Source: Terriglobia bacterium (GTDB taxonomy: Bacteria; Acidobacteriota; Terriglobia; 20CM-2-55-15). From it: a stretch of DNA of 64,000 nucleotides. Location of the stretch: contig CAXWPJ010000002.1 in the NCBI GenBank assembly GCA_963664115.2, positions 608,001 to 672,000 on the forward strand. Reading direction: 5' to 3'. The notes below the pieces were generated by a model. The model had not been told where the DNA came from, did no database searches, and saw only the letters and a list, made by a program, of their open reading frames with translations. The translations under genes were made by a program, and so were the position numbers. Below are positions 45,191 to 64,000 of the stretch, in pieces. Position 1 is the first letter of the stretch, and the number at the start of each line of letters is the position of its first letter.

Positions 45191-45386
45191 TCCAGAAGCC
45201 CGAGACCGGATGGAGGCACTATTGTGCCGGAAGCTGCCGGGGACCGCTCTTCGATGCCCGGCGATCGATCAATCATGTCAAATGATGTCATTTGTCGTCG
45301 CGCTGATCAGGGTCTCCTGATCTTGATCACGACGGTGACTAATGATTGTGAGCTTAGGTAGATAGGTTGTAGAATCCAGTGCGTAA

Positions 45387-45458
<72 letters not shown>

Positions 45459-45494
45459 CTTATCTGTCAATGACTCAGATGATTGGCTGCAAAG

Positions 45495-45516
45495 TTCTAC
45501 CGCGTTTCTACCGCGT
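45495..45516. repeat. 11-bp tandem direct repeat, possible integrase arm-type sites
   Basis: TTCTACCGCGT x2, 36 nt downstream of the tRNA, at the integrase stop. Confidence 0.55.
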
Positions 45517-46450: not shown

Positions 46451-46970
46451 TCAGCGGGCAGACCATGTTCTGGAAAATGAGGCTTTGTAACCCTTTTGGG
46501 TAATTGACTTTAATGGGCCTGCTCCATCAGAATATCATCCAAGGACCTAGGCGCTTGACCAATTGAGATCGCGGGCGATTACGGCTGTCAAATTCGATAG
46601 CATCGGCCGGTCGATCAGGGCGGTGTCCTGACCACAGGGAGTGGACGAAATCCGTTCCCCTTCCCGAGCAAGGAGGCAAAGGAGTTTCTCGTAAATAGCT
46701 AGATTCGTTTGAGATATGTTGTTCGCTGTCCGGAGCAAGACGACTCGATCGCGACAGCGAATCCGCCGTTGAAAGCCAGGATCAGGGGCCACACAACCTG
46801 CCAATCTATACCTCTTTATCCTTAGGTCTAGTTTGATCTGCGCTTGCGCCGGGCCACTGACACTGGACTCGAACGCCGATGCAACTGGAATTTGGTGGCG
46901 GAACCTGGACCCGATTTTTTATTTCGTCGAGTGACGAGCCGGGTTCATCGGTTAGCTCTGGAGTATTGCT

Positions 46971-49385
46971 TTGAATCGTCCCTGGATTCTTTCTGTCCTG
47001 ATCCTGTTCCTGATCGCTGGCATCCCGACACTGGCGCGCGCGCAGTCGTCCGGTAGCGTTGAGGGCTTCATTGCCCTGCCGACCGGAGACCCTGTGGGCC
47101 GTGCAACCGTGCTGCTCTCCGGTCTGGACCGCGTGGCCGAAACCGACGCCAATGGCCGCTTTCGTTTCGACAACGTACCGGTAGGGACATATGGCTTGGT
47201 GGCATATCGGTGGCTCATGTCGGCTGAAGTCGACCAGGTTCTGGTCGGGCAAGGTCAGACCGGGAACGTCCGAATGCAGCTCGGGTCTGCCCTGGTGGTA
47301 ATGGAAACAGCCCGGCCGGCCGATCCGGCAAGGCTTGCCGAAGCCCCCGAAGCAGGTCTGGTGGCGTCGGCAAATTCCCAATCTCTTGAAGTGCCTGTGA
47401 ACGCCGTGCAGAACCGTTCGACCCCGATCAGCACGTTTGATATGACCCGTGCCGGAGCCTCGACGCTCGGCGATGCAATGGATTCCCGACTGGGATTTAA
47501 CACCCGAAGCTTCGGCCAGAGTATCTCGCGGCCAATTTTCAGGGGATTCGATGGAGACCGGGTTCTGATCCTCGGAGACGGACTTTCTGGTGGGTCGCTT
47601 GCCTACCATTCAGGTGACCATTTCGAGCCGTTTGCCCCGGGCACGATCGAACGGATCGAGTTCCTGCGCGGGCCTTCGACGTTGTTGTACGGCAACAGCC
47701 TGGTCGGCCGTGCGATCAATGTCGTCGGACCTGGCCGGACCCGAACGCCGGCTTCGGGTGAAGGCTGGCGTGGGCGCACGTCCTCCGGATTCGGCTTCGG
47801 TGACGCGTATGCCGGCAGTTCTGTCCAGGCCGAGTACGCGAGCGGCAACTGGCAGTTTTCGCTGGCCGGTAGCAGTCGCCGCGCCGGTGATTACGACTCG
47901 CCCCTCGGCTCGGTTGAGAACTCCGGGAACGGTCTGGCCGATGGCTCGGTGGGCATTACATGGTTCGACGACTCCGCGTTCATGGGTTTCAATTACAGCG
48001 TTGGTCGAGGAAGCTATGGCATACCGGTCGCACCCGAATTCCGATCTGCTAACGCAGCGATCCCCATACCGGATGCAGTCGATGTCGAGTTCCGTCGACA
48101 TGGTGTTGAGTTGTTCGGTGGCGCTCGTGCTGAGTACCTCGCGTTCGAGGGTTTCGAATTCTCGGCGAGTTACAGTTACTGGGACCACGATGAAATCGAA
48201 ACTTTCAATGATGTTGGTCCGTCCATCGCCACAAATTTCGGAAATCGGGTCTTGAGTTACCGCGCTTGGTTTGACCAGAAACGAGCCGGTGTTCTCGACG
48301 GCCGAATCGGATTCTCCACCTCGACCAGGGAATATCGGGCGAACGGCCGGGAGCAATTGTTGCCATCGGTCCGCCGTAACAATCTTGCGGTGTTTGCCGT
48401 CGAAGAACTCGATCTCAGTCCGTTTCTGTTAGAGATGGGTGGCCGTATCGATTATGCGGGAGATGGAGTGCGCGGCTTGCTGACCCGCCGGATCAACCCT
48501 CTTGACGCGGACGCCGGATTCGCGCAGGACTTTTTCCGGGGTCGGTCCTTTGTCGGGGGAACAGGATCCCTTGGCGCGAGTGTCCAGGCCTGGGACATCG
48601 GAGAATTCAGGGTCGACCTGACCAGTGGGTACCGGCAACCCGCAATCGAGGAGCTCTATAGTTTCGGTGCGCATGTCGGCCGTCTCACTTTCGACATCGG
48701 CGACGTCACCCTGCGAGCTGAGCGTTCCAACGGGGCCGAGATCTCATTCACCCACACGCGTCCACGGTTCAGTGCCGAGATGGATGTGTTCTATTACGAC
48801 ATCAAGAACTTCGTCTATTTCGGCCTGAACCAGAATTTCTTGCAGGGCCTTATGGAGGCGGAGTACCAACAGGGGCCGGCCCGGTTCAGCGGCGTTGAGC
48901 TGGCGCTGGATTTCCAACTGCACCGTTCAACCAGGCTGAAAGTTGGGATGGAAACCGTCCAGGCCACGCTCAGGGATCTGGGTACCTCCCCTCCCCGGCT
49001 TCCACCGTTTCGCGCAAGGTTCGGTCTGGACTACCGCCTCGGAGGTCTCCGTTTCAGTCCGGAGCTCATCGTGGCTGATTCCCGTGAGGAGGTGTTTTCG
49101 GGAGAGAATCCAACTCCCGGGTACGGACTGGTCAACATGGCCGCTTCCTATACGCTACCCCGCGAAAACATGTCGCATCAATTTGCGTTCAATGTCTTCA
49201 ACTTAGGGGACAAGCTTTACCGGGACCACAACAGCCTGCTCAAGCGCCTGGTGCCCGCATGGGGCCGTGGCTTCCGGATCACCTACGCGATGGAGTTCAC
49301 CAGACCGGCGCCTTCCGGTGGTGCATCGTCTTTCGATCAGGAAGGCCTGGGGTTGGCTGCGGGCGGGCCGACGCCATTGGACTGA
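46971..49385 (+). CDS. TonB-dependent receptor with N-terminal carboxypeptidase-regulatory-like domain (ZnuD-like)
   Basis: Signal peptide, TDANGRFRFDNVPVGTY, plug SRPIFRGFDGDRV..DG..GDH, IERIEFLRGPSTLLYG, FNLGDKLY; TTG start with GGAG RBS. Confidence 0.9.
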   Translation: MNRPWILSVLILFLIAGIPTLARAQSSGSVEGFIALPTGDPVGRATVLLSGLDRVAETDANGRFRFDNVPVGTYGLVAYRWLMSAEVDQVLVGQGQTGNVRMQLGSALVVMETARPADPARLAEAPEAGLVASANSQSLEVPVNAVQNRSTPISTFDMTRAGASTLGDAMDSRLGFNTRSFGQSISRPIFRGFDGDRVLILGDGLSGGSLAYHSGDHFEPFAPGTIERIEFLRGPSTLLYGNSLVGRAINVVGPGRTRTPASGEGWRGRTSSGFGFGDAYAGSSVQAEYASGNWQFSLAGSSRRAGDYDSPLGSVENSGNGLADGSVGITWFDDSAFMGFNYSVGRGSYGIPVAPEFRSANAAIPIPDAVDVEFRRHGVELFGGARAEYLAFEGFEFSASYSYWDHDEIETFNDVGPSIATNFGNRVLSYRAWFDQKRAGVLDGRIGFSTSTREYRANGREQLLPSVRRNNLAVFAVEELDLSPFLLEMGGRIDYAGDGVRGLLTRRINPLDADAGFAQDFFRGRSFVGGTGSLGASVQAWDIGEFRVDLTSGYRQPAIEELYSFGAHVGRLTFDIGDVTLRAERSNGAEISFTHTRPRFSAEMDVFYYDIKNFVYFGLNQNFLQGLMEAEYQQGPARFSGVELALDFQLHRSTRLKVGMETVQATLRDLGTSPPRLPPFRARFGLDYRLGGLRFSPELIVADSREEVFSGENPTPGYGLVNMAASYTLPRENMSHQFAFNVFNLGDKLYRDHNSLLKRLVPAWGRGFRITYAMEFTRPAPSGGASSFDQEGLGLAAGGPTPLD

Positions 49386-49409: not shown

Positions 49410-51056
49410 ATGAAGAAAGCCGATTCCCTGGCTTTTCTCGCGGTGTTTATTTCTCTTCTGCTTTCTGTGCCGACGACGAGGGCTCAGGAAGCGGATTTCG
49501 GCGACATTGAACTCAGGCGGGCGCCGCTTGTCGGGGAGGCCCGGTTGTCGCTGCAGCGGACCGTCGAAATCGCGCTGGAGAGCAACCCCGACCTCGTCGT
49601 GGAAAGGCTCCGAATAGAGCAGTCCCGGGCGGGTGTCGAGGAAGAAAAAGGCGTCTACGACCCAGTCTTTTCCATGTCCGGTCTTGCAGGACGGCGAGAC
49701 AACGTCATCGCGAGTAGATTTTTTCCGACCGGTGAATTCACCGAAGAGAATTTCGTTTACGGTGCCGGCCTGAACGGGGTGACGCACTTGGGATCCCGTT
49801 ACAGTCTGGATCTGAACTATCAACGTCAGATCTCAACGTCGAACACCCAATCTTTGAGTCCCCAGTACTCGGCTACGCTGGATCTGACTTACAGCCAGCC
49901 TCTGTTTCGCGATTTTGGCACCGATGTGACGCTGACCCAACTCCGGATTGCGCAGCGCGAACAGGACATTTCAGAAGAGAATCTGGCGATTGGTCTGACC
50001 AGCCTGATCTTCGAGGTCGTCGAATCGTACTGGAACCTGGTCTTTGCCACCGAGGACCTGGCTGTACGTCGCGCAAGCTTCGAACTGGCTGAAGCTTTGC
50101 TCGAGCAGACCGAAACGCTTTTTGAATCCGGACAATTATCTGAACTCGACGTCCTCGAGGCGCGGGCGGGTGTCTTCGAGCGACGCGAAGACGTAATCCG
50201 CTTCGAGAACCAAGTCGCTGGGGTCGAAGATCTCCTCAAAATTCTGATGTACGCGGACATGGCAGTTGTGAGCGTGACGCCGACCGAGCCGCTGATCGTA
50301 GTCCCCGTAGATCCGAACCCTCAGGAAAGCAACGACCGGGCTCTGGGTCGACGACCCGAGATCTTGAGGCTCCAGACCGTGCTCGAGCAGCGGCAGAACG
50401 AAACGATTTTTGCGTCCAACCAGGTGCGCCCACGCATCGACCTGAACTTGACGTACGGGATGAGTGGGCTGTCGGGAAGACCCAACTTGACACTCGTAAA
50501 TCCTGGAAATCCGCTACAGGGTTTTGCCGGAAGCACCGTCGCCGGTTCGGTGTTTGCGGGCCTGACACGGCCTCTGGGCGCGTTCAATCGGTTCTTCAGC
50601 GGCGACTCCTTCGACAACTGGAGTGTCGAGTTGCGTGTGGAACTACCCCTGCGCAATCGAACCGCTGAAGCCCGACTTGCCAATGCGGGACTGCGCGAGA
50701 AAGAAAGCCAGGTCACGCTGGCCACCGTTGAGGAACAGGTCGTATTCGAAATCCGCCAGGCGCTGAGGGACCTTTCCACGGCAACCGAGAGCATCGATGC
50801 GTCGCGCGAGGCAGTCCGCTATGTTGAGGACCAGCTCGTTGCGACGCGTACGCGGTTCGAAGCCGGCCTGTCAACCAGCTACGACGTTCTGCGTGTGCTC
50901 GAAACGCTGGCCCTGTCACGGCGGCGCGAGTTGCAGGCCTTGACCGACCACAACATTGCCCGCGCTGCGTTGAGTCTGGCCGAAGGCCGTATTCTGGAAG
51001 ACTTCAACGTCGAGGTGGGTGGGGCATCCCGCTCCAATTCGGGGACATCCTTTTAG
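49410..51056 (+). CDS. TolC family outer-membrane channel
   Basis: Signal peptide, LSLQRTVEIALESNPDL, QPLFRDFG, YWNL, RRPE, RFEAGLST; two-repeat OEP layout. Confidence 0.93.
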   Translation: MKKADSLAFLAVFISLLLSVPTTRAQEADFGDIELRRAPLVGEARLSLQRTVEIALESNPDLVVERLRIEQSRAGVEEEKGVYDPVFSMSGLAGRRDNVIASRFFPTGEFTEENFVYGAGLNGVTHLGSRYSLDLNYQRQISTSNTQSLSPQYSATLDLTYSQPLFRDFGTDVTLTQLRIAQREQDISEENLAIGLTSLIFEVVESYWNLVFATEDLAVRRASFELAEALLEQTETLFESGQLSELDVLEARAGVFERREDVIRFENQVAGVEDLLKILMYADMAVVSVTPTEPLIVVPVDPNPQESNDRALGRRPEILRLQTVLEQRQNETIFASNQVRPRIDLNLTYGMSGLSGRPNLTLVNPGNPLQGFAGSTVAGSVFAGLTRPLGAFNRFFSGDSFDNWSVELRVELPLRNRTAEARLANAGLREKESQVTLATVEEQVVFEIRQALRDLSTATESIDASREAVRYVEDQLVATRTRFEAGLSTSYDVLRVLETLALSRRRELQALTDHNIARAALSLAEGRILEDFNVEVGGASRSNSGTSF

Positions 51057-51069
51057 TCTGGAGCCCAAC

Positions 51070-51885
51070 ATGAAATCAACGATTCGAATAATGTGCGGCG
51101 TGTTGGCCCTCGGCGTCGGCTCTGGCCAGTTTCTTGCTCAACAAGCCGCGACCGGTGTCGTGCGAGCCGAAGAGGCCGTCATCGTTCGCAGCGAAGTTGT
51201 GGGCATCGTCGACCAAATCGATGTCCAGGAAGGCCAGCGCATATCGGAAGGCGAGCCGCTCGTGCACCTGCGGAAGGACCTCCAGGAGATCGGTCTCCGC
51301 CTCGCAGCGGCACGGCTGGATCGGGCTGAAGCCACCGCGGCCGCCTCGGAGGTGACGCTTGAGAATGCCCGGCACACTCTGGCACGAGTGGAAGTCGCGG
51401 CAACTGCGCTGACCGAAAAGGAATACGAGGACGTCATCGATGAGGTGCACCGTTTGGAGGCGCTGCTAAAGGCGCAGGAGGCCGAGGTCGTCGAGTTCCG
51501 CGTGGAGCAGGATCTTCGCCAGCAGGAGTTTGACGCCCGCTCGATTCGTGCCCCCTTCGACGGTACCGTCACAGCGGTCTATCTGGTGCGGGGCGACGCC
51601 GTGGCGCCTCTGGAAACGCCGATTCTGGCCCTCGTGCTTCTGGATCAACTGTACGTCGAGCTGGCACTGCCGGTGTCTGAACTCCCCAGACTCGCAGAAG
51701 GCATGCGGGTTGGAATCGACGTGGAAAGCGAAGTCCTTGGCCCGGCCGGACAGGTGGGCGGTGTCATCCGATATATCAATCCCACCGTCGACCCGTCGAG
51801 TCGCACGTTCCTGGTTAAAGTCGGATTTTCCGATCCGCCCGGACAGATCCGACCTGGAATGCGGGCTGACGTCGAGCTGCCATGA
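51070..51885 (+). CDS. HlyD/RND-type periplasmic adaptor (membrane fusion protein)
   Basis: Lipoyl half-motifs GIVDQIDVQEGQRI and IRAPFDGTV around a coiled coil; INPTVDPSSRTF, IRPGM; ATG 51070. Confidence 0.92.
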   Translation: MKSTIRIMCGVLALGVGSGQFLAQQAATGVVRAEEAVIVRSEVVGIVDQIDVQEGQRISEGEPLVHLRKDLQEIGLRLAAARLDRAEATAAASEVTLENARHTLARVEVAATALTEKEYEDVIDEVHRLEALLKAQEAEVVEFRVEQDLRQQEFDARSIRAPFDGTVTAVYLVRGDAVAPLETPILALVLLDQLYVELALPVSELPRLAEGMRVGIDVESEVLGPAGQVGGVIRYINPTVDPSSRTFLVKVGFSDPPGQIRPGMRADVELP

Positions 51886-51912: not shown

Positions 51913-53775
51913 ATGGAATACAGAGACGAACACCATGATGAGTCGGCGCCGGCCGACCTGATCGACGAGCTGGAAAGCCTTAGACGTTTCAATGGCCCGC
52001 CGGCACAGTTCTGGCCGCTGTTTCTGGAAAAGGCCGGCATGTTGGTGACGGCCCATCTGGCCGTGCTGCTGATGTTTTCCACCGACGACAAGTCCTGGAA
52101 GCGTATGGCCCTGTGGCCTGAGAGCGAGAAGGACACGCTCAAGATGCCGAAGCTGACCGGCGATATCGAGCGGGTGGCCGGTCGTTCCCTGGCCGAACGG
52201 TCCGCGATCAGCTCCGATGATCTTCCACCCGAACTGGGCGATGCCTGCCTGATCGGCCTTCGTCTCGGGACCGGGCAGGATGTCCAGGTCGTGGCCGTCT
52301 TCATCATCGGGAACTCGACCTACACCGATGCCGAAGAGGCGCGAATGCGCCTCAGCCTGATTGCCGATACGCCGAGCCTCTATCAACTCGGGCGCCTGTT
52401 TGACCAGACGCGATCCGATGTCGGCAAGTTCAGCGATTCGCTCGACCTGACGGTCCTGATCAACGACCAGACCCGCTACGTCGCAGCCGCGATGACGCTA
52501 TGCAACGAAGTCGCCTCCCGATTCAACTGCGATCGCGTGTCGCTGGGCTGGTTGAAGGACGGCTATGTCCGGGTCCAGGCCATCAGCCACATCGAACGCT
52601 TCGAGAAGAAGATGGACGTGGTTCAGGCGCTGGAGGCCGTCATGGAAGAGGCTCTGGACCAGGACACGGAAATCGTCTGGCCTTCGCCCCCTGAGGGCCA
52701 CTTCATCACCCGCAGCCACGAGTCGTTTTCGAAACGCGAAGGCGCTTCCGACATCGTGTCGCTTCCGATGCGGATCGAAGGGGTTCCGGTTGCGGTTCTC
52801 ACCTGCGAACGGAGCGGTGATTCGTTCGCTGAAGAAACCGTCCGCGGACTACGACTGCTTTCCGACCTGGCCACACGTCGCCTGGGCGATCTTCGCGACC
52901 GGGACCGGTGGATCGGCGCCCGGGTGGCCGGGGCGGTTCGTGACGGTGCCGGGCGTCTGGTGGGCGTCGAACACACCTTCGCCAAGCTCGCCGGCATCGT
53001 GCTGATGGGTCTTCTGGCGTTCGGAATTTTCGGAACCCTGGAATACCGCGTCGAAGCGCCGTTCGTTCTCAAGTCCGACGATGTCGTCTACGTGTCGGCG
53101 CCTTTTGACGGGTTCATCGATCAGGTGCCCATTGACGTCGGCGATCCGGTGGAACCCGGTGATCTGTTGCTCAGTTTTGACACGCGCGAACTCCTCCTTC
53201 AGGAAGCCACGGCGATCGCAAACCAGATCCGTTACGAGCGGGAAGCCGAGCAGGCCCGGGCCCAGCGCGCAACCGCCGACATGATGATCGCTGAAGCGCT
53301 GGCCGACCAGGCCGGGGCGCAACTGGCACTGGTGCGGCACTTTATTGAACGGGCCGAGGTGCGGGCGCCGTTCAACGGCATTGTCGTGGAGGGCGATCTT
53401 CAGGAACTGTTGGGGACACCGGCTCAAAAGGGAGATGCGCTGTTCCGGATCGCCCGGACCGAGAACCTGTACGCCGAACTCGAACTCGATGAGCGGGACG
53501 CCCAGGACGTGTCGGAGGTGTCGACCGGCGAGATCGCTTTCCTGACCCGCCCGGATCTGGTTTTCCCGATCGTGGTTGAACGGACCGATCCGGTGACGGT
53601 GACCCGCGACGCAGATAATGTCTTCATCGTTCGCGCTAACCTGTCGGGCGAAGCCTCAGACTGGTGGCGGCCCGGCATGAGCGGCATCGCCAAGATCAAT
53701 GCGGGGCGGAGAAACGTCCTCTGGATCCTTACGCACCGAACGATCGATTTTTTGCGAATGTACCTGTGGTGGTAA
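51913..53775 (+). CDS. GAF-like domain + HlyD adaptor fusion protein
   Basis: Cytoplasmic GAF-like region (CDRVSLG, EEALDQD, IVSLPM, AVLTCER), one TM, VSAPFDGFI / VRAPFNGIV, WWRPGMSGIAKI. Confidence 0.85.
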   Translation: MEYRDEHHDESAPADLIDELESLRRFNGPPAQFWPLFLEKAGMLVTAHLAVLLMFSTDDKSWKRMALWPESEKDTLKMPKLTGDIERVAGRSLAERSAISSDDLPPELGDACLIGLRLGTGQDVQVVAVFIIGNSTYTDAEEARMRLSLIADTPSLYQLGRLFDQTRSDVGKFSDSLDLTVLINDQTRYVAAAMTLCNEVASRFNCDRVSLGWLKDGYVRVQAISHIERFEKKMDVVQALEAVMEEALDQDTEIVWPSPPEGHFITRSHESFSKREGASDIVSLPMRIEGVPVAVLTCERSGDSFAEETVRGLRLLSDLATRRLGDLRDRDRWIGARVAGAVRDGAGRLVGVEHTFAKLAGIVLMGLLAFGIFGTLEYRVEAPFVLKSDDVVYVSAPFDGFIDQVPIDVGDPVEPGDLLLSFDTRELLLQEATAIANQIRYEREAEQARAQRATADMMIAEALADQAGAQLALVRHFIERAEVRAPFNGIVVEGDLQELLGTPAQKGDALFRIARTENLYAELELDERDAQDVSEVSTGEIAFLTRPDLVFPIVVERTDPVTVTRDADNVFIVRANLSGEASDWWRPGMSGIAKINAGRRNVLWILTHRTIDFLRMYLWW

Positions 53776-53781
53776 TGATCG

Positions 53782-55935
53782 ATGGCCTTCGGTAATACAT
53801 TCAGCGAATCCTGGCACCGGGTGGCCGGGCTGCGGATCAGCCTGCGGCCCACCGTATCGGCAAGGAAGCAGTTTTTCCGCGGTGAGACCTGGTACGTACT
53901 GGAAGACCCCTTCAACAACAGTTTCTTCCGCTTGCGTCCCGAAGCTTACGAATTCGTTTCCCGCCTGGCACCGGACCGCACGGTTGAAGAGGTTTGGGAA
54001 GGTTGCCTGACGCGCAAACCCGAGGACGCTCCGGGGCAGGAAGACGCGATCCGGCTGCTCAGCCAACTCTATTTCGCAAACCTGTTGTATTTCAAAACGG
54101 CCGGCGACAGCGAGGCGTTGTTTGAGCGGTACCGGCAGCGCCGCCAGCGGGAAACCAAATCCAAGCTCATGTCGATCATGTTCATGCGCATTCCCATGAT
54201 CGATCCCGATCAGATGTTGCGCGCCGTTATGACGGCGATTCGTCTGTTCATCAGCCCGATCGGATTGGCGATATGGGTTGGGGCTCTGGGTTACGCGATC
54301 AAGCTCTTCTTCGACAACTTCGCCGAAGCCGCTGACCAGACCCAGGCCATTCTGGCGCCGTCGAACCTCTTCCTGCTCTATCTGGGCCTGATCGTCACCA
54401 AGACCGTCCATGAGTTCGGCCACGCCATCGTCTGTCGACGGTACGCCGGAGAAGTGCACACGATGGGCATCATGCTGCTGGTGTTCACGCCGATCCCCTA
54501 CATGGACGCCACGTCGAGCTGGTCGTTCCGAAGCCGATGGCAGCGCGCGTTCGTGGGCGCGGCGGGCATGATCTTCGAGCTGTTTGTCGCGTCGATTGCA
54601 ACCGTCGTGTGGGCCAATACCGATGAGGGCACTATACACAGCCTGGCGTACAACATGATGTTCGTCGCGTCGATTTCGACCCTGGTATTCAACGCCAACC
54701 CGCTGCTGCGCTTCGACGGTTACTACATCCTCTCGGACCTGGTCGACATTCCGAACCTGTCGAACCGGTCGTTCCGGCAGATCCGTCACGTCGTCGAGCG
54801 CTACGGATTCGGATACCTGGAATCCGAGAGCCCGTCGGATTCGATGCGCCAGGCCACGCTGCTTGGCGGTTTCTGCGTCCTGAGCGCGGTCTACAAGGTC
54901 CTCGTGTTCACTGGAATCGTTCTGTTCGTGGCCGACAAGCTGTTTCTGGCCGGATTGATCATGGCGGCGGTGTGCGTGTTTGCCTGGCTGGTCGTTCCGT
55001 TAACTCGGCTGCTGACCTACATAGCGACCGGTCCGCACCTGGCGCGGAAGCGGGCCCGCGTTGCCCTGGTTTCGCTCGGTACACTTGGCGTCGTTTTCGG
55101 ATTTCTGGGCGTCTTCCCCTTCCCCAATCATTTCCGTGCCGATGGCGTTCTCGAAGCCGCCCGATTCCAGCTCGTCGCCAACGATGCGTCCGGCTACGTC
55201 GTTGCGGTGCGGACACCACCGGGTGCAACGGTCCAGCCGGGAACCCCGCTGTTCGAACTGGCCGATCCCGAGCTTCAGTTCTCGATCGATTCGGCCGAAG
55301 CCGAGCGTCGGGAAACCCTGGCCTTTATGCAACGGGCCCTGGACAGGCAGATCGCCGAAATTGAGCCGATTCAGAAACGGCTGGACACCATCGAGCAGAA
55401 GATTGCCGACCTGGAACAGGTTCGCGAATCTCTGCTCGTGGTAGCCGCACAAGAAGGTATCTGGGTCGCGGCCGAGTCCGGTCAGCTCGACGGGTCGTGG
55501 GTCCAGCGCGGTTCGATCCTGGGCCAGGTCATCGACGAGGGTCAGTTCCGGTTTGTGGCCGCTGTTCTCCAGGACGAAGCGTCCAACCTGTTCGCCGAAG
55601 CGATTCGAAAGGCCGAGGTCCGTGTTCGCGGACAAGGGGGATTGACCGTCCCGGTCCAGTCCTATGAAGCCATTCCCTTCGAATACCGAAACCTCCCCTC
55701 GGCTGCGCTGGGCTGGCTGGGCGGTGGTGACGTGCCGGTTGCCGCCGATGACGAGACCGGTGTGGCGGCCACCGAGCCGTTCTTCCTGATCTACGCCGAT
55801 CTGGACGACGTGGGTGAGGTGGCGTATCTCCGCGGTCGGCGTGGCGAGATCCGGTTCACCCTGGAGCCGCAGCCGCTGCTGGCGCAGTGGTACACGAAAT
55901 TCCGCCGGTTATTGCAGGAGCGGTACCAGATTTGA
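53782..55935 (+). CDS. PqqD/RRE-like domain + site-2 (M50) metallopeptidase + HlyD adaptor fusion
   Basis: HEFGH (54409-54423) and NANPLLRFDGYY (54691-54726) within TM region; N-terminal YVLEDP..FFRL..AYEF..L..RTVEE winged-helix-like pattern; C-terminal lipoyl/coiled-coil module. Confidence 0.88.
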   Translation: MAFGNTFSESWHRVAGLRISLRPTVSARKQFFRGETWYVLEDPFNNSFFRLRPEAYEFVSRLAPDRTVEEVWEGCLTRKPEDAPGQEDAIRLLSQLYFANLLYFKTAGDSEALFERYRQRRQRETKSKLMSIMFMRIPMIDPDQMLRAVMTAIRLFISPIGLAIWVGALGYAIKLFFDNFAEAADQTQAILAPSNLFLLYLGLIVTKTVHEFGHAIVCRRYAGEVHTMGIMLLVFTPIPYMDATSSWSFRSRWQRAFVGAAGMIFELFVASIATVVWANTDEGTIHSLAYNMMFVASISTLVFNANPLLRFDGYYILSDLVDIPNLSNRSFRQIRHVVERYGFGYLESESPSDSMRQATLLGGFCVLSAVYKVLVFTGIVLFVADKLFLAGLIMAAVCVFAWLVVPLTRLLTYIATGPHLARKRARVALVSLGTLGVVFGFLGVFPFPNHFRADGVLEAARFQLVANDASGYVVAVRTPPGATVQPGTPLFELADPELQFSIDSAEAERRETLAFMQRALDRQIAEIEPIQKRLDTIEQKIADLEQVRESLLVVAAQEGIWVAAESGQLDGSWVQRGSILGQVIDEGQFRFVAAVLQDEASNLFAEAIRKAEVRVRGQGGLTVPVQSYEAIPFEYRNLPSAALGWLGGGDVPVAADDETGVAATEPFFLIYADLDDVGEVAYLRGRRGEIRFTLEPQPLLAQWYTKFRRLLQERYQI

Positions 55936-57917
55936 TCGTTCCCAGCCATGACTACATGCGGACGGCCACGGTGGAACCGCCCGAGTTTCATCGTGGGTGG
56001 GATGGGGCGGCCTACGGCATCGTCGGCGCGTGGAAACGCCGACCAACCACACTCGGCCGCTTCGGGCGCCAGGCGGACCGGATCTATGACATGGCCGGCC
56101 GGCTTGGACATTTGTCCGACAGCGCTCTTCGGGAGCGCATGTCCGGATTTCGGGAGCGATTCCGGTGCCACCGGGTCCGGGATGACGCGGTGGTCTCCGA
56201 GGCTCTGGCCGCGATCGTCGAGGCCGCTGAACGGAGGCTGGGACTGCGGCCATACCCGGTGCAGATCGTCGGTGCCCTGGCCATGGATCACGGATTTCTC
56301 GCCGAGATGGCCACCGGCGAAGGGAAGACGCTCACCGCCTGCCTGCCGATGATCCTGGCCGCCTGGACCGAGCGCCCCGCACACCTGGTCACGGTAAACG
56401 ATTACCTCAGCGACCGCGATGCAACGGAGATGGGTCGCCTCTACGCTTTCTGCGGTGTTTCAGCTGCGGCGGTGACCGCCCCTATGGACCAGCGCGAACG
56501 GTACCGGAACTACCAGAAAGACGTCGTCTACGTCACCAGCAAGGAGCTGGTCGCTGACTTTCTCCGCGACCGGCTGCGGTTGGGCAAACTCGAGCATCCC
56601 ACACGACGGCTGATCGCCGGCATGTTGCCCGGCGGTACCATCCGGCCCGACGAAATCGTGATGCGCGGTCTGGACACCGTGATCGTCGACGAGGCCGACA
56701 GCGTTCTGATCGACGAGGCGGTGACGCCGCTGATCATCTCCCGGGCCCGCGATAACGAGACGCTGCGTGAAGCGTGCCGCATCGCGAGCGAGATTGCAGA
56801 TACGCTGGAGCCCGGCAGCGACTATCAGGTCGATGAGCGGTACAAGGAAGTCCGGATCACCGACGCCGGCGAGGCCCGGGTTCTTGATGCCGCGGCAAAA
56901 CTGCCCGGCGTCTGGCAGGGGACCCTGCGCCGCGAGGAGTTGGTCAAGCAGGCGTTGACCGCGCGCGAATTCTATATCCGGGACAAACAGTACGTCGTCG
57001 ACGACGGCCGATTGACGATCGTCGATGAGTTCACCGGCAGACTGATGCCGAACCGGTCCTGGCGGGCGGGCCTCCACCAGGCCGTTGAAGCCAAGGAAGG
57101 CCTGGATGCCACGCTGCCGACCGAGACCCTGTCCCGGCTGAGTTTTCAGCGGTTCTTCCGGCAGTTCCGGCGAATCGGCGGGATGACAGGGACGGCCAGC
57201 GAAGCAGCTTCCGAGTTCTGGCACATCTACGGGCTGCCCGTCCTTCGGGTCCCGACACACCGGCCGATGGTGCGCGATACGTATCCGGACCGGGTATTTG
57301 CGACCCGGGACGAGAAATTCAACGCGATCGTCGATGAAATCGCGGCCTGTCACGAGTCCGGCCGTCCCGTTCTGGTCGGAACCCGAAACGTCGAAGCCAG
57401 TGAGACTCTCGCCTCACTGCTCCGGTCCCGGAACCTGGAATTCAACCTGTTGAACGCCACCCACCACAGCGACGAAGCACGCATCGTGGCTGCGGCCGGC
57501 CAGCCCGGCAACATCACTATTGCGACGAACATGGCCGGACGTGGGACCGATATCAAGCTGGGCCGCGGCGTGGGAGCCATGGGCGGGCTCCACGTCATTG
57601 CCACCGAGCGCCATGAGGCGCGGAGAATCGACCGTCAGCTCTTCGGACGATGCGCACGACAGGGCGACCCCGGCAGCGCGCGGGCCTATATCAGCGTTGA
57701 TGACGAACTAATCAAGCGCTTTGTGCCGGTCTGGGTACGGAACGGGCTCGAAACTGCCGTTGCCGCCGATTTGCCGGCCGCATCGCAGATGGCGCATAGG
57801 GTGTTTCGATATGCGCAAAAGGCGGCCGAAAAACTCGCATTTCGGCAGCGCGCCTCGGTGCTGCGTGCCGATGAGCACCTGGAACGGAGCCTTGGTTTCG
57901 CCGGTCCCGGCAGCTGA
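55932..57917 (+). CDS. Accessory, C-terminally truncated SecA-type ATPase (SecA_DEAD)
   Basis: EMATGEGKT, VTVNDYL, DEADSVLIDEA, IVDEFTGR, GLHQAVEAKE, TNMAGRGTDI, RRIDRQLFGRCARQGDPG; ~660 aa; TTG 55932 overlaps the upstream TGA, CAGGAG RBS. Confidence 0.93.
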   Translation: MIVPSHDYMRTATVEPPEFHRGWDGAAYGIVGAWKRRPTTLGRFGRQADRIYDMAGRLGHLSDSALRERMSGFRERFRCHRVRDDAVVSEALAAIVEAAERRLGLRPYPVQIVGALAMDHGFLAEMATGEGKTLTACLPMILAAWTERPAHLVTVNDYLSDRDATEMGRLYAFCGVSAAAVTAPMDQRERYRNYQKDVVYVTSKELVADFLRDRLRLGKLEHPTRRLIAGMLPGGTIRPDEIVMRGLDTVIVDEADSVLIDEAVTPLIISRARDNETLREACRIASEIADTLEPGSDYQVDERYKEVRITDAGEARVLDAAAKLPGVWQGTLRREELVKQALTAREFYIRDKQYVVDDGRLTIVDEFTGRLMPNRSWRAGLHQAVEAKEGLDATLPTETLSRLSFQRFFRQFRRIGGMTGTASEAASEFWHIYGLPVLRVPTHRPMVRDTYPDRVFATRDEKFNAIVDEIAACHESGRPVLVGTRNVEASETLASLLRSRNLEFNLLNATHHSDEARIVAAAGQPGNITIATNMAGRGTDIKLGRGVGAMGGLHVIATERHEARRIDRQLFGRCARQGDPGSARAYISVDDELIKRFVPVWVRNGLETAVAADLPAASQMAHRVFRYAQKAAEKLAFRQRASVLRADEHLERSLGFAGPGS

Positions 57918-58075: not shown

Positions 58076-61000
58076 TTGAGTCGAAAGCAAGACAAAGAAC
58101 GCTACAACCTTGAGAACCTCGAGCCCCGAATCCTACTTTCGGGTGACCCCCTCGTCGGTGCCTTAGCCAGTCTTGCGCCCAGGGAGGCCGACTCTGAAGA
58201 GCCCATTCTCACCTCCGTTCAGGAGGTGACGGTTTCGGAAGAAACGCTCTACGAATCCCACACAACCGACTCGGAACCGTACGATCCGGCGGCCTCGGTC
58301 GACGACATTTTCTCTGGTATGACCGGTGAAGATTCTCTCGCCGATGGTGCCGATGACGCGTCCGATTCCTCCGATTCCAGCGACGTCAATTTCCCGATCG
58401 GCGACGACGAAGCCGCGCAAATTGTGCAAGGCCTCGACGAACTGGCCGGCGTCGGCGAGGTGATCAGCGAGTCTGAAACGCTGACCACACCGCTCGATGG
58501 TCTGGGTGATCTATCACTGGGCGACGTCTTCGGCGTGGGCGAAATTCTGGATTCGCGACTGGCGAAATCGGTGTATGACCACTTCGGTGATGCGGTCGAT
58601 CCGCCCACTGTAGAGGGAGTCATAGAGGCCATCCGAAATGGCCTGACTGCCCTGGGTGAACAGGAAATTTCAGTCAGTTCACTCGAGGGTATAGTTGTGT
58701 CTGGCGGCGAACAGATCCGCTTCGACATCGCCTTCACCCTCCGCCAGTCCGGTCAAATCTTTCTCGATCAAGACCTTACCGATTCCGACGGCGCCGAATC
58801 TACCACCTATACCGCAACGCTGAAAGTCGATTTGAGTTTTGGTGTTGATCAAGGCCAGTCCGACAGCTTTTTCCTCATCATTCGTTCTCTTGAGATCGAA
58901 TTGACCGTGAATCAGCCCGGAACGGGAGCTTCTGAGAGCGGCCGTGTCGAGGTCGGGTTCGCTGGGGCGGCCGGGGCAGACGGCGCGCTCAGCGTCGCCG
59001 AACTCGAGGCGATCCAGTCCAGCGGTGCCGAACTGGAGATCGAGGCGACCGGATCGCTGTTCGATGACGGAAGCGCAGATTTTGCGTCACTGGCTGCGAC
59101 CTCTGCGCTGACCACTTCGGGAGCCGCGACCAGCTTCGTGACGTTGGATGAATCCCCTGCCGCAAGCTCGGCAGTGACCACCAACCTCGCCGATCTGACG
59201 CTTGGGCCCAACTCGATCACGACGTTCAATATCGGCGGCACAACCCCCGGCTCCGGATACGACCAGACTATCGTCTCTGGCGACGTCACACTGGATGGCG
59301 AGCTGGCAATCGTCGTGGCCGCCGGCTTCGGCCCGAGCCTGGGCGATACATTCGACATCGTCACGTTCACCGGAAGTGTGAGCGGCGCATTCGTCGACGG
59401 AACCGGCATCTACGGGTTTGGCGATGGTTCGCTGTTCCTTGAGGTCGTCGTAGAAGACAGTACTGCCGAAAGTGACGGTAAGGTCCAGCTGGAAGCCAAG
59501 ACGGCCCCGGGCGGGAATTTCATAACTTCCAGTACGCCACTGCTCAGCGATGTGCTCGGCCTCTATTACAGCGAGTACTTCACGCTGGGCGCTTCGGTCG
59601 CCATCAGCGGTGAGATCAACATCGGCGGATACGTGACCCTCGCGGGAACCTTTGAATTTGGCTTCAGTCTGGATGAGACGGTCACGCTTGGGACCGGATT
59701 GCCGACGACCCTGACTCCCGAGCTCGTGACCACTGTTGGCGCACAAATCGAATTAGCTCTGGCCACGATCCCGGGTACCCAGATTCTTTCCCCTGATCTG
59801 CAGTCGATCACTGGCCTTCCCGTTGCGGTTCTGGAAATCGGCGGTAGCAATATCCACGCGTTCGTGGGTGTGAACGGGCCGTACTGGACAGACCTGAATG
59901 GAAACGGGGACGTCGATACCGGGGAAACCAACGAAAGTGCCACCGGCCTGGCGATTACCAACGTCGATTTCGGTTACGTTGCGATGCAGTTGCTGCCTTC
60001 GGTTGTGGCCTTGCCCCTCAACGCCCAGTTCTTCCAGGCCTTGAAGGCGACCGCATCCCAGGTGGGGTTGGTGGGCGTCCCCAACGTCGAACTGTCGGTC
60101 GATAACGTTCTGATCGAAGTCAACTCGGGTCCGACCTGGACGGCGCTGGGTGTTAGCGGTGACGGGCCGGCGGTGGTCGACTTTGAAGCTAGCTTCCTGG
60201 CCCAGACTGGAACCGACACGGACGGAGACAGCAAGCACGTTGAGCCGGCTGGCTATGAGGTCGGTACCGGCACGGTGCCGGTTTACATCGACCTGGATGG
60301 CAACGAGCGGCTCGGTGCCAGTGTGGACAACGCGCTGCTGTCGATCGGGGGCAGCGACGGCAAGTTTGTCTATGCGAACGGCAACCTGTCGTTCGAGAAG
60401 GGCCCGACCAGCATCGTGACTGTTGCGACCGGTATCCCGGCCAACATCAATGGAACCCCGGCCGGAGACACCATCGAGACGAATTTCGCGACCCGGACGG
60501 GGTTGAGTGGCAGCAGCGCGACACTGTCGGGCGACATGCAGACGATCAGTAACGTTCAGATGGCCAGTCTTCAGATTGGCGGAAGCGCTATTCAGATCTT
60601 CGTGGGCGTCAACGGGCCATACTGGACAGATTCGGACAAGGACGGCAACGTCGATCCCGGAGAAACCAGCGACAACGCGACCGGCGTGTCGATCACCAAC
60701 GTGAACTTCGGTCTGGTGACGATGACGCCGACCCAGGAACTGCCGCTGTTGAGCAGCCAGACCTTCACGGCGTTGAAGCTGACTGGTTCCCAGGTGGGCC
60801 TGGTTGGAGTCCCTGGGGTGGAGTTGTCGGCCGACAACGTACTGGTGGAGGTCAACACGGGTCCGACCTGGACGGCGACGGGTATCAACGGCGATGGCCC
60901 GGCGGTGGTCGATTTTGCCGCCAGCTTCCCGGCGGCGAACGGCTCCCCGGCCGGTTTCGAGGTGCGCACCGGCACGACATCGACGCCCGTCTATATCGAC

Positions 61001-64000
61001 TTCGACGGCAACGAACGAATCGGTGCGAGCGTGGACAACGCGTTGTTGTCGATCGGGGGCAGCGACGGCAAGTTCGTATACGCCAACGGAAACCTGTCGT
61101 TCGAGAAGGGCCCAACCAGCATTGTGACGGTTGCAACCGGTATACCGGCGAATATCGTTGGAACCGCGACCGAAACGGCCTTGAGAGCGCAGTTTGGTGT
61201 GGCGACCCTCGTAAGTAGCAACGTCACGCTGTCGAACGATCTGCAGACCATCAATAACGTGCAGGTTTCAGGCCTTCAGATTGGCGGCAGCAACATTCAG
61301 ATTTTCGCCGGAGTGAACGGGCCGTATTGGACAGATACGGACAAGGACGGCAACGTCGATCCTGGTGAAACCAGCGACAGCGCGACGGGCGTGTCGATCA
61401 CCAACGTGGACTTCGGGTTGGTGACGATGACGCCGACCGTCGAGTTGCCGCTGTTGAGTGACCAGACGTTTACGGCGTTGAAGTTGACCGGTTCCCAGGT
61501 GGGACTGGTCGGTGTCCCGTTTGTGCAGCTGTCGGCCGACAACGTTCTGGTGGAAGTGAACACGGGGCCGACCTGGACGGCGGCTGGTATCAATGGTGAC
61601 GGGCCGGCGGTGATCGATTTTGCCACCAGCTTCCCGGCGGCGGGCGGCTCCCCGGCCGGTTTCGAGGTGCGCACCGGCACAACATCGGCACCGATCTATA
61701 TCGCTTATGACGGCAACGAGCGGATCGGTGTAAGCGTGGACAACGCGTTGTTGTCGATCGGGGATAGCAGTGGCAAGTTCGTCTATGTGAACGGCGACTT
61801 CTCGTTCGAAAAGGGCCCGACCAGTATCGTGAGTGTCGCGACCGGTCTTTCCAGCGACCAGCTGCCAGGCGTTCCGGCCCTCATAAAAGCGCAATTCTTG
61901 GCCGAGGCGTTCCTGAATCAAACCAACGCGACCTTGTCGGCCGACCTGCAGACGATCAGCAACGTTCAGATGTCGAGTCTGCAGATTGGTGGCAGCAACA
62001 TTCAGGTCTTCGTGGGCTTGGGCGGACCGTACTGGACGGACCTGGATCGCAATGATGATGTCAGTTGGGCATTGCCCGATGGAACCACCCGGACCAACGC
62101 CAACGGCACGCCGATGGCGAATTTTGTCCACACTGATGGCGTCACCTACGGTGACCTCAACGGCGACGGTGTGGTGGATGCGAACGAAACGGCCGAGCTG
62201 AGCGAAAACGCGACCGGATTCGCAATCACCAACGTCAATTTTGGTCTTGTCATGTTGACGCCGACCCAGGAACTGCCGATGCTGGGCAGCCAGACCTTCA
62301 CGGCTCTGAAGCTGACCGCCACCCAGGTCGGTCTGGTGGGCATCGATGAAGTTCAGATCAGCGCGAATGACATCACCGTCAGCGTGAACGTCGGGCCAGA
62401 TTGGACAGGTCTGGCTAGCGGGCAGGGACCGGCGGTCGTTGATTTCGTCAACAGTTACCCGGCTGAAGCCAGCAACACCGACAGCGACAACGATGGACTG
62501 TTGGGCGAGCCGGCCGGCTTCCAGGTGCGTACCGGCACTACATCGGCGCCGATCTATATCGATTTCGACGGCAACGAGCGAATCGGCGCCAGGATCGAAA
62601 AAGTCACGCTGAAGATCTCCGAAGTTGTCCATGCGACCGGCAGCATCGAGTTCCTCAAAGGCCCCGTGCAGAGGGTCGGTCTGACCGGCGGGGGCGATAA
62701 GCAGCTGTCGTTCATGACCATTGGCGGGTCCAACCTCCACGCGTTCATTGGCATGGACGGTCCGTACTGGACGGACCTGGACGCCGATGACGACATCAGC
62801 TGGGCCTTGCCGGATGGGACCACCCGGACCAACGCCAATGGCACGGCGATGGCGGATTTCATCCACACTGATGGCGTCACCTACGGTGACCTCAACGGCG
62901 ACGGCAAAGTCGATGCCAATGAGACGGCTGAGCTGAGCACGGAAGCTGTGGGGCTGGTCATCAACGACTTCGATTTCGGCCTGGCAATTATGTCGCCGAC
63001 GAGCCCATTCGACTTCGTCGACTACTTCGCCCTCAAGGCCAGTGCCGATCAGATCGCTCTGGTGGGTATCGACGACGTGACGATCTCGGGCGAGGACATC
63101 AAGGTCGCAGTCAACCATTCCAGCCCCAGTCTCAAAGGCATACCGATCTTCCCGGTCGTCGATTTCAGCAACACAACTGTCCGGCCGGAGTTCGCCAACG
63201 AGGAGTTGGCGCTGTTCGACCAGAATATCAGCGGACGAATCACGCTTGGCGACCTGGCGACCCTGAATGCAGCACTTCCTGCCGCATCCAGATTCGCCGA
63301 CCTCGCGGGAGTCTCCCTGACCGATGCCACACCGGTCGATCACGAAGGCTTGCTCGCCATCCTGAACACGAACGACGCCGGAGACAGTCGGGGCATCATC
63401 GACATCGACGAAGCCGCGGCGTTGCTCGGCGGTGCGACGGCGGTTTCGCAGGTCGAGAATGCGGACATCGACCTCGATGGCAAGATCGATCCGCTCGGTT
63501 TCGAGATTGGCACCGGCGGCGATCCGGTGTACCTGGACATGAATTCGGTCCTGATACGCGCGCAGGGATTTGTCGACATCAAGATTCTTGATGTCGTATT
63601 CCTGTCCGGCAGTGTCGCCTTTGAACTCGGGCCCATCCACACGGTGACCCTGGCCGACGGCGTGACCACCAAGAGCGTCAGCACGATGACCATCGGCGCG
63701 GCCAACGTGACCGGATTCATCGGTGTAGACGGGCCGTACTGGACCGATCTGGACGGCGATCACGAGGTTTCCTGGTCGGATGCGAACGGCGACCCGTTGG
63801 TCGATACGGATGGTGACGGTGTCGTCGATGCGAACGAGACCTCTGAGCTGAACGGCGATGCAGTCGGCTTCCACGTGACCGATCTCGATATCGGTATCAC
63901 CCTGATGGCCGCGACTGCGCTTAATGATCTGGGCGTATACCTCGCCGCCAAGCTCGACGTGAACAGCTTCGGCCTGATCGGAATCCCCGGGCTTACGGCG
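58076..64000 (+). CDS. Giant LEPR-XLL-motif acidic repeat protein, probable secreted adhesin/surface protein (partial, >=1975 aa)
   Basis: TTG 58076 (first start after in-frame TAA 58025) reads MSRKQDKERYNLENLEPRILLSGDP...; frame still in register at the window end (..NSFGLIGIPGLTA); six GPYWTD-anchored repeats with DxDxDG loops. Confidence 0.92.
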   Translation, partial: MSRKQDKERYNLENLEPRILLSGDPLVGALASLAPREADSEEPILTSVQEVTVSEETLYESHTTDSEPYDPAASVDDIFSGMTGEDSLADGADDASDSSDSSDVNFPIGDDEAAQIVQGLDELAGVGEVISESETLTTPLDGLGDLSLGDVFGVGEILDSRLAKSVYDHFGDAVDPPTVEGVIEAIRNGLTALGEQEISVSSLEGIVVSGGEQIRFDIAFTLRQSGQIFLDQDLTDSDGAESTTYTATLKVDLSFGVDQGQSDSFFLIIRSLEIELTVNQPGTGASESGRVEVGFAGAAGADGALSVAELEAIQSSGAELEIEATGSLFDDGSADFASLAATSALTTSGAATSFVTLDESPAASSAVTTNLADLTLGPNSITTFNIGGTTPGSGYDQTIVSGDVTLDGELAIVVAAGFGPSLGDTFDIVTFTGSVSGAFVDGTGIYGFGDGSLFLEVVVEDSTAESDGKVQLEAKTAPGGNFITSSTPLLSDVLGLYYSEYFTLGASVAISGEINIGGYVTLAGTFEFGFSLDETVTLGTGLPTTLTPELVTTVGAQIELALATIPGTQILSPDLQSITGLPVAVLEIGGSNIHAFVGVNGPYWTDLNGNGDVDTGETNESATGLAITNVDFGYVAMQLLPSVVALPLNAQFFQALKATASQVGLVGVPNVELSVDNVLIEVNSGPTWTALGVSGDGPAVVDFEASFLAQTGTDTDGDSKHVEPAGYEVGTGTVPVYIDLDGNERLGASVDNALLSIGGSDGKFVYANGNLSFEKGPTSIVTVATGIPANINGTPAGDTIETNFATRTGLSGSSATLSGDMQTISNVQMASLQIGGSAIQIFVGVNGPYWTDSDKDGNVDPGETSDNATGVSITNVNFGLVTMTPTQELPLLSSQTFTALKLTGSQVGLVGVPGVELSADNVLVEVNTGPTWTATGINGDGPAVVDFAASFPAANGSPAGFEVRTGTTSTPVYIDFDGNERIGASVDNALLSIGGSDGKFVYANGNLSFEKGPTSIVTVATGIPANIVGTATETALRAQFGVATLVSSNVTLSNDLQTINNVQVSGLQIGGSNIQIFAGVNGPYWTDTDKDGNVDPGETSDSATGVSITNVDFGLVTMTPTVELPLLSDQTFTALKLTGSQVGLVGVPFVQLSADNVLVEVNTGPTWTAAGINGDGPAVIDFATSFPAAGGSPAGFEVRTGTTSAPIYIAYDGNERIGVSVDNALLSIGDSSGKFVYVNGDFSFEKGPTSIVSVATGLSSDQLPGVPALIKAQFLAEAFLNQTNATLSADLQTISNVQMSSLQIGGSNIQVFVGLGGPYWTDLDRNDDVSWALPDGTTRTNANGTPMANFVHTDGVTYGDLNGDGVVDANETAELSENATGFAITNVNFGLVMLTPTQELPMLGSQTFTALKLTATQVGLVGIDEVQISANDITVSVNVGPDWTGLASGQGPAVVDFVNSYPAEASNTDSDNDGLLGEPAGFQVRTGTTSAPIYIDFDGNERIGARIEKVTLKISEVVHATGSIEFLKGPVQRVGLTGGGDKQLSFMTIGGSNLHAFIGMDGPYWTDLDADDDISWALPDGTTRTNANGTAMADFIHTDGVTYGDLNGDGKVDANETAELSTEAVGLVINDFDFGLAIMSPTSPFDFVDYFALKASADQIALVGIDDVTISGEDIKVAVNHSSPSLKGIPIFPVVDFSNTTVRPEFANEELALFDQNISGRITLGDLATLNAALPAASRFADLAGVSLTDATPVDHEGLLAILNTNDAGDSRGIIDIDEAAALLGGATAVSQVENADIDLDGKIDPLGFEIGTGGDPVYLDMNSVLIRAQGFVDIKILDVVFLSGSVAFELGPIHTVTLADGVTTKSVSTMTIGAANVTGFIGVDGPYWTDLDGDHEVSWSDANGDPLVDTDGDGVVDANETSELNGDAVGFHVTDLDIGITLMAATALNDLGVYLAAKLDVNSFGLIGIPGLTA
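59876..64000 (+). repeat. Intragenic tandem repeats of ~235-325 codons
   Basis: GPYWTD codons start at 59876, 60614, 61319, 62024, 62759, 63731 (spacings 738, 705, 705, 735, 972 bp). Confidence 0.9.

Follow-up and report, generated by a model that had tools for sequence, protein, structure and literature searches.

How a SecA protein could move a polypeptide without its two-helix finger, and how sister export machines that lack an ABC (ATP-binding cassette) transporter are powered, are the questions posed by a gene cluster in a 64,000-nucleotide stretch of the genome of a Terriglobia bacterium (assembly GCA_963664115.2, contig CAXWPJ010000002.1, positions 608,001 to 672,000; the whole stretch is called the window here, and its genome G000). 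In this cluster, a short second SecA is encoded between the gene for an M50 protease fused to a periplasmic adaptor and the gene for a giant RTX-repeat protein with an N-terminal LEPR-XLL tag. The preferred reading, to which a probability of about 0.58 is given, is that the short SecA is a clamp-type plug-in motor for a SecY-independent, ABC-less, leader-dependent exporter, with the adjacent LEPR-XLL giant as its probable cargo. This reading builds on domain content, a conserved end point, catalytic and clamp residues, gene coupling, and co-occurrence of tag and machine; the bindings, the cleavage, the direction of transport, and the pore are inferred.

The protein is a further member of a described family. 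Kamneva, Poudel and Ward 2015 (PMC4452313) reported 'secondary SecA_DEAD domain proteins' without the wing/scaffold domain (all or most of SecA_SW missing), from loci encoding M50-HlyD, GAF-HlyD, HlyD, and sometimes OEP proteins with no ABC transporter, and suggested SecA as the source of ATP hydrolysis and the M50 protein as the pore. The protein in the window is likewise a second SecA in a diderm, with SecA_DEAD present and SecA_SW absent, encoded beside a canonical 886-residue SecA, and its neighbours are exactly the same (M50-HlyD, GAF-HlyD, HlyD, and OEP, with no ABC transporter). Because the gene family and the idea of an ATPase paired with an M50 protein have been in print since 2015, this copy adds little alone, and the proposal in a preliminary description of this DNA that the ATPase works with an M50 channel restates a published hypothesis. 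The main text of the 2015 paper names no cargo, LEPR-XLL tag, RRE domain, SecA-less sister class, or ATPase-dead copies, and contains no experiment on the proteins. Methylobacterium extorquens AM1 is among the carriers of the locus that the paper names. A full-text literature search, with subscription journals mostly outside its reach, returned no experimental study of the locus and none tying the LEPR-XLL tag to it.

The short SecA and its elements are as follows (aa, amino acids; A3, the 149-row alignment described below).

55932..57917, + strand: short SecA (secondary SecA_DEAD protein), 661 aa, with NBD1, PPXD, NBD2, and the long scaffold helix, without wing, two-helix finger, and C-tail
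56307..56330, + strand: Walker A motif MATGEGKT, aa 126-133; G131 and K132 the same in 149/149 rows of A3
56688..56699, + strand: Walker B / DEAD, aa 253-256; D253, E254, and D256 the same in 149/149 rows
57636..57659, + strand: motif VI QxxGRxxR, aa 569-576, with the arginine finger; Q569, R573, and R576 the same in 149/149 rows
57780..57902, + strand: predicted C-terminal scaffold helix, aa 617-657 (AlphaFold2 model), with a family-conserved L-x-F-x-G cap at its end; R640 in 149/149, L654 in 121/149, and F656 in 118/149 rows
55916..55935, + strand: AGGAG, resembling a ribosome-binding site, and the TTGA in which the stop of the M50 gene overlaps the start of short secA, from the sequence

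The gene starts at a TTG overlapping the TGA stop of the M50 gene (TTGA, 55932-55935), with the AGGAG (55916-55920) 11 nucleotides upstream. An alternative in-frame GTG at 55887 would give a protein of 676 aa; homologs are mostly of 659-664 aa. A scan for promoters and terminators gave counts at chance level (3 versus 3.1; 11 versus 11.4). The protein matches Pfam SecA_DEAD, SecA_PP_bind, and P-loop_SecA, and the same scan did not find SecA_SW, which covers the wing and two-helix finger. The ATPase motifs and PPXD had been described as intact, and all of the motifs were indeed located, including YVVDDGRLTIVDEFTGR and MAGRGTD. In the NCBIfam scan, it falls under the cut-off of every SecA and SecA2 model: 608.7 bits against a cut-off of 800 for TIGR00963 (housekeeping SecA), and 511/930, 427/725, 522/1085, and 410/1100 bits (score/cut-off) for the SecA2 models TIGR03714, TIGR04221, TIGR04397, and NF012136.

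Aligned with E. coli SecA, as had been proposed, the protein is 37 % identical over 663 columns; its residue 648 corresponds to E. coli residue 650 and it ends near E. coli residue 663, so that approximately 238 of 901 residues (26 %) are absent from the C-terminus. The preliminary description had placed the end about 65 aa after SVDDELIKRF, which agrees with the 64 aa measured, and had described the C-terminal third as lacking. The wing, two-helix finger, and tail are gone; since residue 648 aligns with E. coli residue 650 the missing part is about a quarter of SecA and not a third. Nor is the scaffold helix present only at its start, as had been thought: in the AlphaFold2 model (149-row alignment; pLDDT 94.8, pTM 0.92) residues 617-657 form one 41-residue helix, and therefore most of the long scaffold helix is kept. 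Compared with housekeeping SecA, the DEAD motor, gate residues, PPXD clamp, long scaffold helix, and fold are shared, and the Walker A, Walker B, gate, and motif VI residues are all present, whereas the wing, finger, and zinc tail are missing and there are an insert of approximately 20 aa in NBD1 and an N-terminal extension of approximately 20 aa.

The short SecA is an intact, naturally short protein and not a pseudogene. Among the best 120 homologs listed, the query excluded, the C-terminal end lies within -1 to +3 residues of that of the query in 119/119, and 143 of the best 150 representatives at 50 % identity are 600-725 aa in length. Alignment A3 consists of the query, six close homologs, and 142 representatives, eight fragments, fusions, or canonical SecA having been left out; in it K132, D253, E254, D261, R537, Q569, R573, and R576 are invariant (149/149 rows) and the C-terminal cap R640...L654-x-F656 is conserved. 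A quick tree, whose rows do not include the sequences of Kamneva 2015, splits 34 short and 10 canonical SecA rows by one branch (support 91). Apart from the short length, nothing suggests a secA that was recently truncated or turned into a pseudogene, or a product of misassembly. The end point is shared across phyla, contigs from 4/4 public runs, one or more of which may be the source of the window assembly, span the stop with no indel and the stop unchanged, and a full-length secA is found elsewhere, and on the first two of these grounds that explanation is ruled out. Both checks that had been suggested, for a shared end point among homologs and for a housekeeping secA, thus speak against recent truncation: the genome encodes an 886-aa SecA on contig C4, 43 % identical to the short SecA and the sole SecA_SW match, so the short form is not its only SecA. 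Some homologs (proteins P0030, P0056, and P0072) carry the public label 'prepilin peptidase', which looks like misannotation. A contig scan for related loci was insensitive, returning 18 loci, 10 of them canonical secA.

Published work on SecA indicates which of the retained parts could do the moving. Dong 2023 (PMC9926265) describe a clamp of connecting beta strands and PP loop that moves the chain in a helicase-like step, and a two-helix finger that inserts into SecY and is essentially static; contacts with SecY are also made by the PPXD and the long scaffold helix (PMC9926265). In A3 the clamp is kept, with R375 in 143/149, W377 in 138/149, and R212 in 134/149 rows; at the position of the intercalating Phe of helix 8, 86 of the 149 rows have Ala and 58 have Phe. 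The model superposes best on structures of SecA bound to SecY with an engaged substrate (6itc, TMq 0.79, root-mean-square deviation (rmsd) 4.0 A; 5eul, TMq 0.77, rmsd 4.4 A), against TMq 0.58-0.72 for structures of SecA without SecY, a likeness that may partly be predictor bias. E. coli SecA fragments N649-N668 have high ATPase activity, translocate 0 % of pOmpA through SecYEG (Table 1), and open SecYEG ion channels (Hsieh 2017, PMC5456053). From the behaviour of these fragments, it is improbable that a natural protein as short as this one could by itself move substrates through SecYEG, though it may touch SecY. To say that the short SecA lacks the SecY-engaging part was accordingly an overstatement, since the PPXD and long helix are kept and the N649-N668 fragments still act on the channel.

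Upstream of the short secA gene, the cluster encodes the following.

49410..51056, + strand: TolC-family outer-membrane channel, 548 aa (OEP, two matches)
51019..51885, + strand: small periplasmic adaptor of the RND/HlyD type, 288 aa when counted from the first start codon (TIGR01730, 129.1 bits, cut-off 94.9)
51913..53775, + strand: GAF domain, one transmembrane segment, and HlyD-type adaptor, 620 aa (domain scan, hydropathy)
53782..55935, + strand: predicted RRE (PqqD-like, approximately aa 19-103), M50/site-2 protease, and periplasmic adaptor fusion, 717 aa (Peptidase_M50; five hydrophobic segments)

No ABC transporter was found in the ORFs (open reading frames) and domain scans of the cluster. 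The coupling of the short secA gene to the M50 gene through the TTGA overlap, recognized in the preliminary description, extends to the related loci. A SecA gene follows the M50 ortholog in 32/34 class I loci (class I being the clade of the M50-adaptor tree to which the window belongs), the remaining two being one contig end and one true absence; candidate starts overlap the M50 stop in 25/32, and four more lie within 4 nucleotides downstream.

Judged from its sequence, the M50 fusion has an RRE leader-binding domain at its N-terminus and intact protease motifs. The metal motifs are HEFGH (aa 210-214) and NPLLRFDG (aa 305-313), and H210, E211, H214, N304, P307, and D312 are invariant in 36 ortholog rows. 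A PqqD match was obtained in the N-terminal 120 aa of 8/9 orthologs (E up to 5, best 9e-07), the copy in the window being itself without a Pfam match; the domain gave E 0.14 against PDB 3g2b. A single-sequence fold (pLDDT 40.5), used solely for the order of secondary structure, has three strands and then three helices, and a structure search with this poor fold gave generic helical matches only. Against NF041824 (daptide MpaP) the fusion scores 158.6 bits, with a cut-off of 300.

Downstream lies the gene of the likely cargo.

58076..64000, + strand: beginning of the gene for the giant RTX-repeat protein, whose frame stays open for 6,560 aa in the assembly, past the end of the window; likely cargo
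58106..58168, + strand: LEPR-XLL N-terminal tag, aa 11-31, LENLEPRILLSGD; the sole such match in this genome (NF012209, 31.3 bits, cut-off 17)

There is no hydrophobic signal-peptide core at the N-terminus of the giant. The tag and the M50-adaptor gene occur together: 56 of 653 genomes searched have the tag, 56/56 of these carry the M50-adaptor gene, and the tag was found in 0/503 M50-negative genomes. By phylum, in samples that differ in M50 query and threshold and include many drafts, the tag is present in 4/201 genomes of the phylum of the window (G000 included; G023 is among the tag-negatives), all among the five with a full-length M50 ortholog, in 34/301 Pseudomonadota, all M50-positive (0/225 M50-negative), and in 18/151 Planctomycetota, all M50-positive (0/108 M50-negative). 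In the fifth M50 genome of the window's own phylum (G090), a variant tag is present on the adjacent giant. The tag ends in S in 30/31 read (32 fetched) from class I genomes and in D in 8/8 loci from genomes that have only the class II clade of the M50 tree; tag and machine therefore vary together. Most of the tagged proteins measure hundreds to thousands of residues, and tagged open frames reach 19,427 aa. The giant gene in G000 is broken after 6,560 aa (G000:C2 approximately 685,750-685,910; L164:2748-2917) and continues, in a different frame, as an ORF of 1,167 aa. The break sits in a tandem RTX repeat array that is almost wholly uncovered by the contigs of the four public runs, and for this reason it is probably an assembly error. 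The homolog of the giant in genome G205 also appears split near the same place.

SecA2/SecY2 systems of Gram-positive bacteria have large adhesins encoded alongside, and their SecA2 proteins retain the scaffold/finger region and work through SecY or SecY2. Like these accessory SecA2/SecY2 and SecA2-only systems, the window has a second SecA for a special cargo. However, G000 (97 % complete) has a single secY, on contig C9 and not on the contig of the cluster, no dedicated secY2, and a short SecA that is under the cut-off of the four SecA2 models; the rearrangement in SecA2 is also milder (Kamneva 2015, PMC4452313). The absence of secY2 and asp genes here had been noted before, and it holds for the neighbouring ORFs: no secY was found among those scanned, nor was asp1-3 among the seven cluster ORFs scanned, with no genome-wide search made for asp1-3.

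With type I secretion the cluster shares an adaptor, a TolC-family channel, and an RTX-repeat cargo, and peptidase-containing type I systems also cut an N-terminal leader. It differs in having no ABC transporter, in its three adaptors, of which two are fusions with membrane or GAF domains, in a metalloprotease that replaces C39, and in a SecA-type ATPase. In daptide biosynthesis, an RRE-fused site-2 protease removes a leader with the motif ELExMEAP (10.1101/2023.03.08.531785). The daptide proteins MpaP/DapP likewise have the RRE N-terminal to an intramembrane M50 protease, and ELExMEAP resembles xLExLEPR; in the window, by contrast, the M50 fusion also carries a periplasmic adaptor, and the tagged neighbour is a giant and not a short precursor peptide. 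A preprint on Omnitrophota describes SecA_DEAD/PP_bind domains without wing/scaffold inside giant proteins, proposed as giant-protein exporters (10.1101/2023.11.21.568195). There the wingless motor is fused in cis within the giant, and the term M50 is absent from its text (10.1101/2023.11.21.568195). SecA-like segments were also seen within very long ORFs at G502:C1:21411-21941 and in protein P0193 (2,546 and 4,930 aa), which recall these giant-fused domains.

If the short SecA is a motor of this exporter, export would begin with binding of the N-terminal tag by the RRE of the M50 fusion, as fold and co-occurrence suggest. The short SecA may then attach to the cytoplasmic face of the membrane subunits, which would stand in for SecY, a step suggested by gene coupling. 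Its clamp, of which the TC-beta strands and PP loop are both kept, would hold the unfolded chain and move it forward, N-terminus leading, in helicase-like steps that need no moving finger. The site-2 protease, with its motifs in place, would cut off the tag, and the chain would presumably leave by way of the adaptors and TolC, its RTX repeats then letting it fold on Ca2+. More broadly, the locus may belong to a distinct giant-protein secretion system in which an RRE reads a RiPP-style leader (RiPP, a peptide made on the ribosome and modified after translation), an intramembrane protease cuts it, and adaptors and TolC export the product with neither ABC nor SecY; the energy module would be exchangeable, one class having recruited a finger-less SecA to a non-SecY channel as its clamp motor, and the sister classes encoding no ATPase. 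The chance of this wider proposal is put at slightly under even.

The M50-adaptor tree has three supported clades, class I (support 96), class II (100), and class III (99), and it is the class I clade that carries the short SecA. Class II loci mostly hold a giant, TolC, a small adaptor, and an adaptor of approximately 450 aa. The profile match of M50 proteins begins at approximately position 2-8 in class I and mostly at approximately 19-40 in class II, which makes the first 35 residues a candidate docking site. A number of observations weigh against a motor on which this exporter depends. In the 15 class II loci read, no SecA or ABC gene lies beside the M50 gene. Of the 45 Pseudomonadota genomes with class II alone, 44 were searched with a profile, and a short SecA was found in 0/44, against the idea that such loci borrow one encoded elsewhere; the same search did detect the short SecA in class I genomes, in two intact controls and as three degenerate copies. 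The class II-only genomes hold solely canonical SecA (in G343 the housekeeping secA appears split over two contigs), and eight of them carry LEPR-XLL matches. In class III, the short SecA was found in 0/6 genomes searched, with no tag match. Genome G460, with its class I M50 gene and tagged giant, is without a short SecA. Three of 32 class I SecA copies (G207, G255, and G219; loci L114, L115, and L117) are without Walker A and DEAD, and in the full alignment also without motif VI; they are open frames of 514-650 aa, in frame and coupled to the M50 gene, that of L115 (G255) is also without most of the PPXD, and their M50 partners form one clade (support 98). The NF012209 match is missing from 25/43 M50-positive Planctomycetota genomes, the genome counts are not independent since the genomes are related, and the 149-row conservation counts favour intact proteins since the rows were picked by score. 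The M50 fusion as pore is speculative, given just five hydrophobic segments. Two similar peptidase-type ABC and adaptor pairs in G000 (C10:375,813-378,759; C9:9,694-12,319) could in principle export an RTX protein, and Kuzyk 2026 (10.64898/2026.03.19.712371) assigns the export of two LEPRxLL giants, which are expressed and passed to the partner cell, to TolC/SapC/HlyD and from the C-terminus, and reports symbiosis proteins kept in the periplasm.

From the absence of SecA in classes II and III, the loss in G460, and the dead copies, the M50-adaptor protein appears to be the core of the machine and SecA a class-specific module. What this analysis newly contributes is evidence that members of the wider family can do without the short SecA. 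The earlier proposal that the ATPase drives a non-SecY channel is consequently upheld in part: a role away from SecY fits the 0 % translocation by the N649-N668 fragments, whereas 'drives' is weakened by the SecA-less sister loci and the dead copies. Weak SecA_DEAD matches in ORFs of approximately 690 aa in four SecA-less genomes were considered as divergent short SecA and rejected, as they are RecG. Class III modules in the phylum of the window (L062-L066, L070, and L071) comprise a triple-GAF adaptor of approximately 800 aa, often a small adaptor, and the M50-adaptor protein, and no SecA, giant, or tag was seen near them.

The same SecA-less loci with tagged giants, the loss in G460, and the in-frame dead copies with related M50 partners are what would be expected if the short SecA had an accessory role, as a chaperone, holdase, or targeting factor that stops the tagged giant from folding and passes it on to the M50-adaptor machine, with force from the proton motive force, Ca2+-driven folding outside, a co-translational push, or the housekeeping SecA. 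This is unlikely, though not remote: Walker A is kept in 29/32 class I copies, and all 149 rows of A3 have the same gate residues (D261/R537) and arginine finger, as expected of a working motor. In addition, a homolog search that started from one dead copy gave nothing besides that copy and canonical SecAs, which saturated the candidate list, and no large dead subfamily was seen. That the short SecA instead works with the single SecYEG, alone or with the housekeeping SecA in the manner of SecA2-only systems, and that the giant reaches the periplasm and leaves by adaptors and TolC in a second step, is improbable. The SecY-inserting finger is absent, the fragments of similar length do not translocate through SecYEG, and the giant has no signal-peptide core; TolC with inner-membrane-anchored adaptors also usually means one-step export. 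On the other side, the retained PPXD and long helix contact SecY, the fragments open its ion channels, class II genomes hold only canonical SecA, giant symbiosis proteins are found in the periplasm (Kuzyk 2026, 10.64898/2026.03.19.712371), and the tree of Kamneva sets the clade beside actinobacterial SecA2 (PMC4452313).

It is very improbable that the cluster processes or exports a small peptide, or acts in GAF-dependent signalling, and that the giant, with its RTX repeats, leaves by an ABC-type system encoded elsewhere. RRE-site-2 proteases are known from small-peptide pathways, class III modules are without a tag, and the two peptidase-ABC pairs are available; however, these pairs are under the type I and bacteriocin cut-offs where scanned (one far below the type I cut-off, 412 versus 725 bits), and no adaptor or ABC in the genome reaches the type I cut-offs searched. 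The presence of the M50 fusion in every tag-positive genome, the absence of the tag where the fusion is missing, and the variation of tag type with machine class also argue against it.

If the short SecA is indeed a clamp-type motor of the exporter, the SecA motor is separable from SecY and functional without the two-helix finger, which would make the family a natural test of the disputed SecA mechanism (clamp/helicase-like step, finger push, or ratchet). Some of the largest proteins of bacteria would also gain a named exporter and tag. With versions at hand that have no SecA or a dead ATPase, the energy source can be addressed directly by comparison.

Around the cluster, a TonB-dependent receptor gene (window 46971-49385) lies 24 nucleotides upstream of tolC on the same strand, an order also present in locus L004 and not seen in the more distant loci read. 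Further upstream, two overlapping short ORFs (window 45552-46215, - strand) resemble fragments of a phage-type integrase and suggest an insertion-site remnant. Elsewhere in G000, there is a second M50-adaptor gene, of class III (C4 approximately 44,262-46,544, L165), encoding 760 aa with HEFAH kept and without a GAF-adaptor or SecA partner; its neighbour, a 428-aa ORF, is similar to a transposase-like ORF that is repeated in other parts of the genome.

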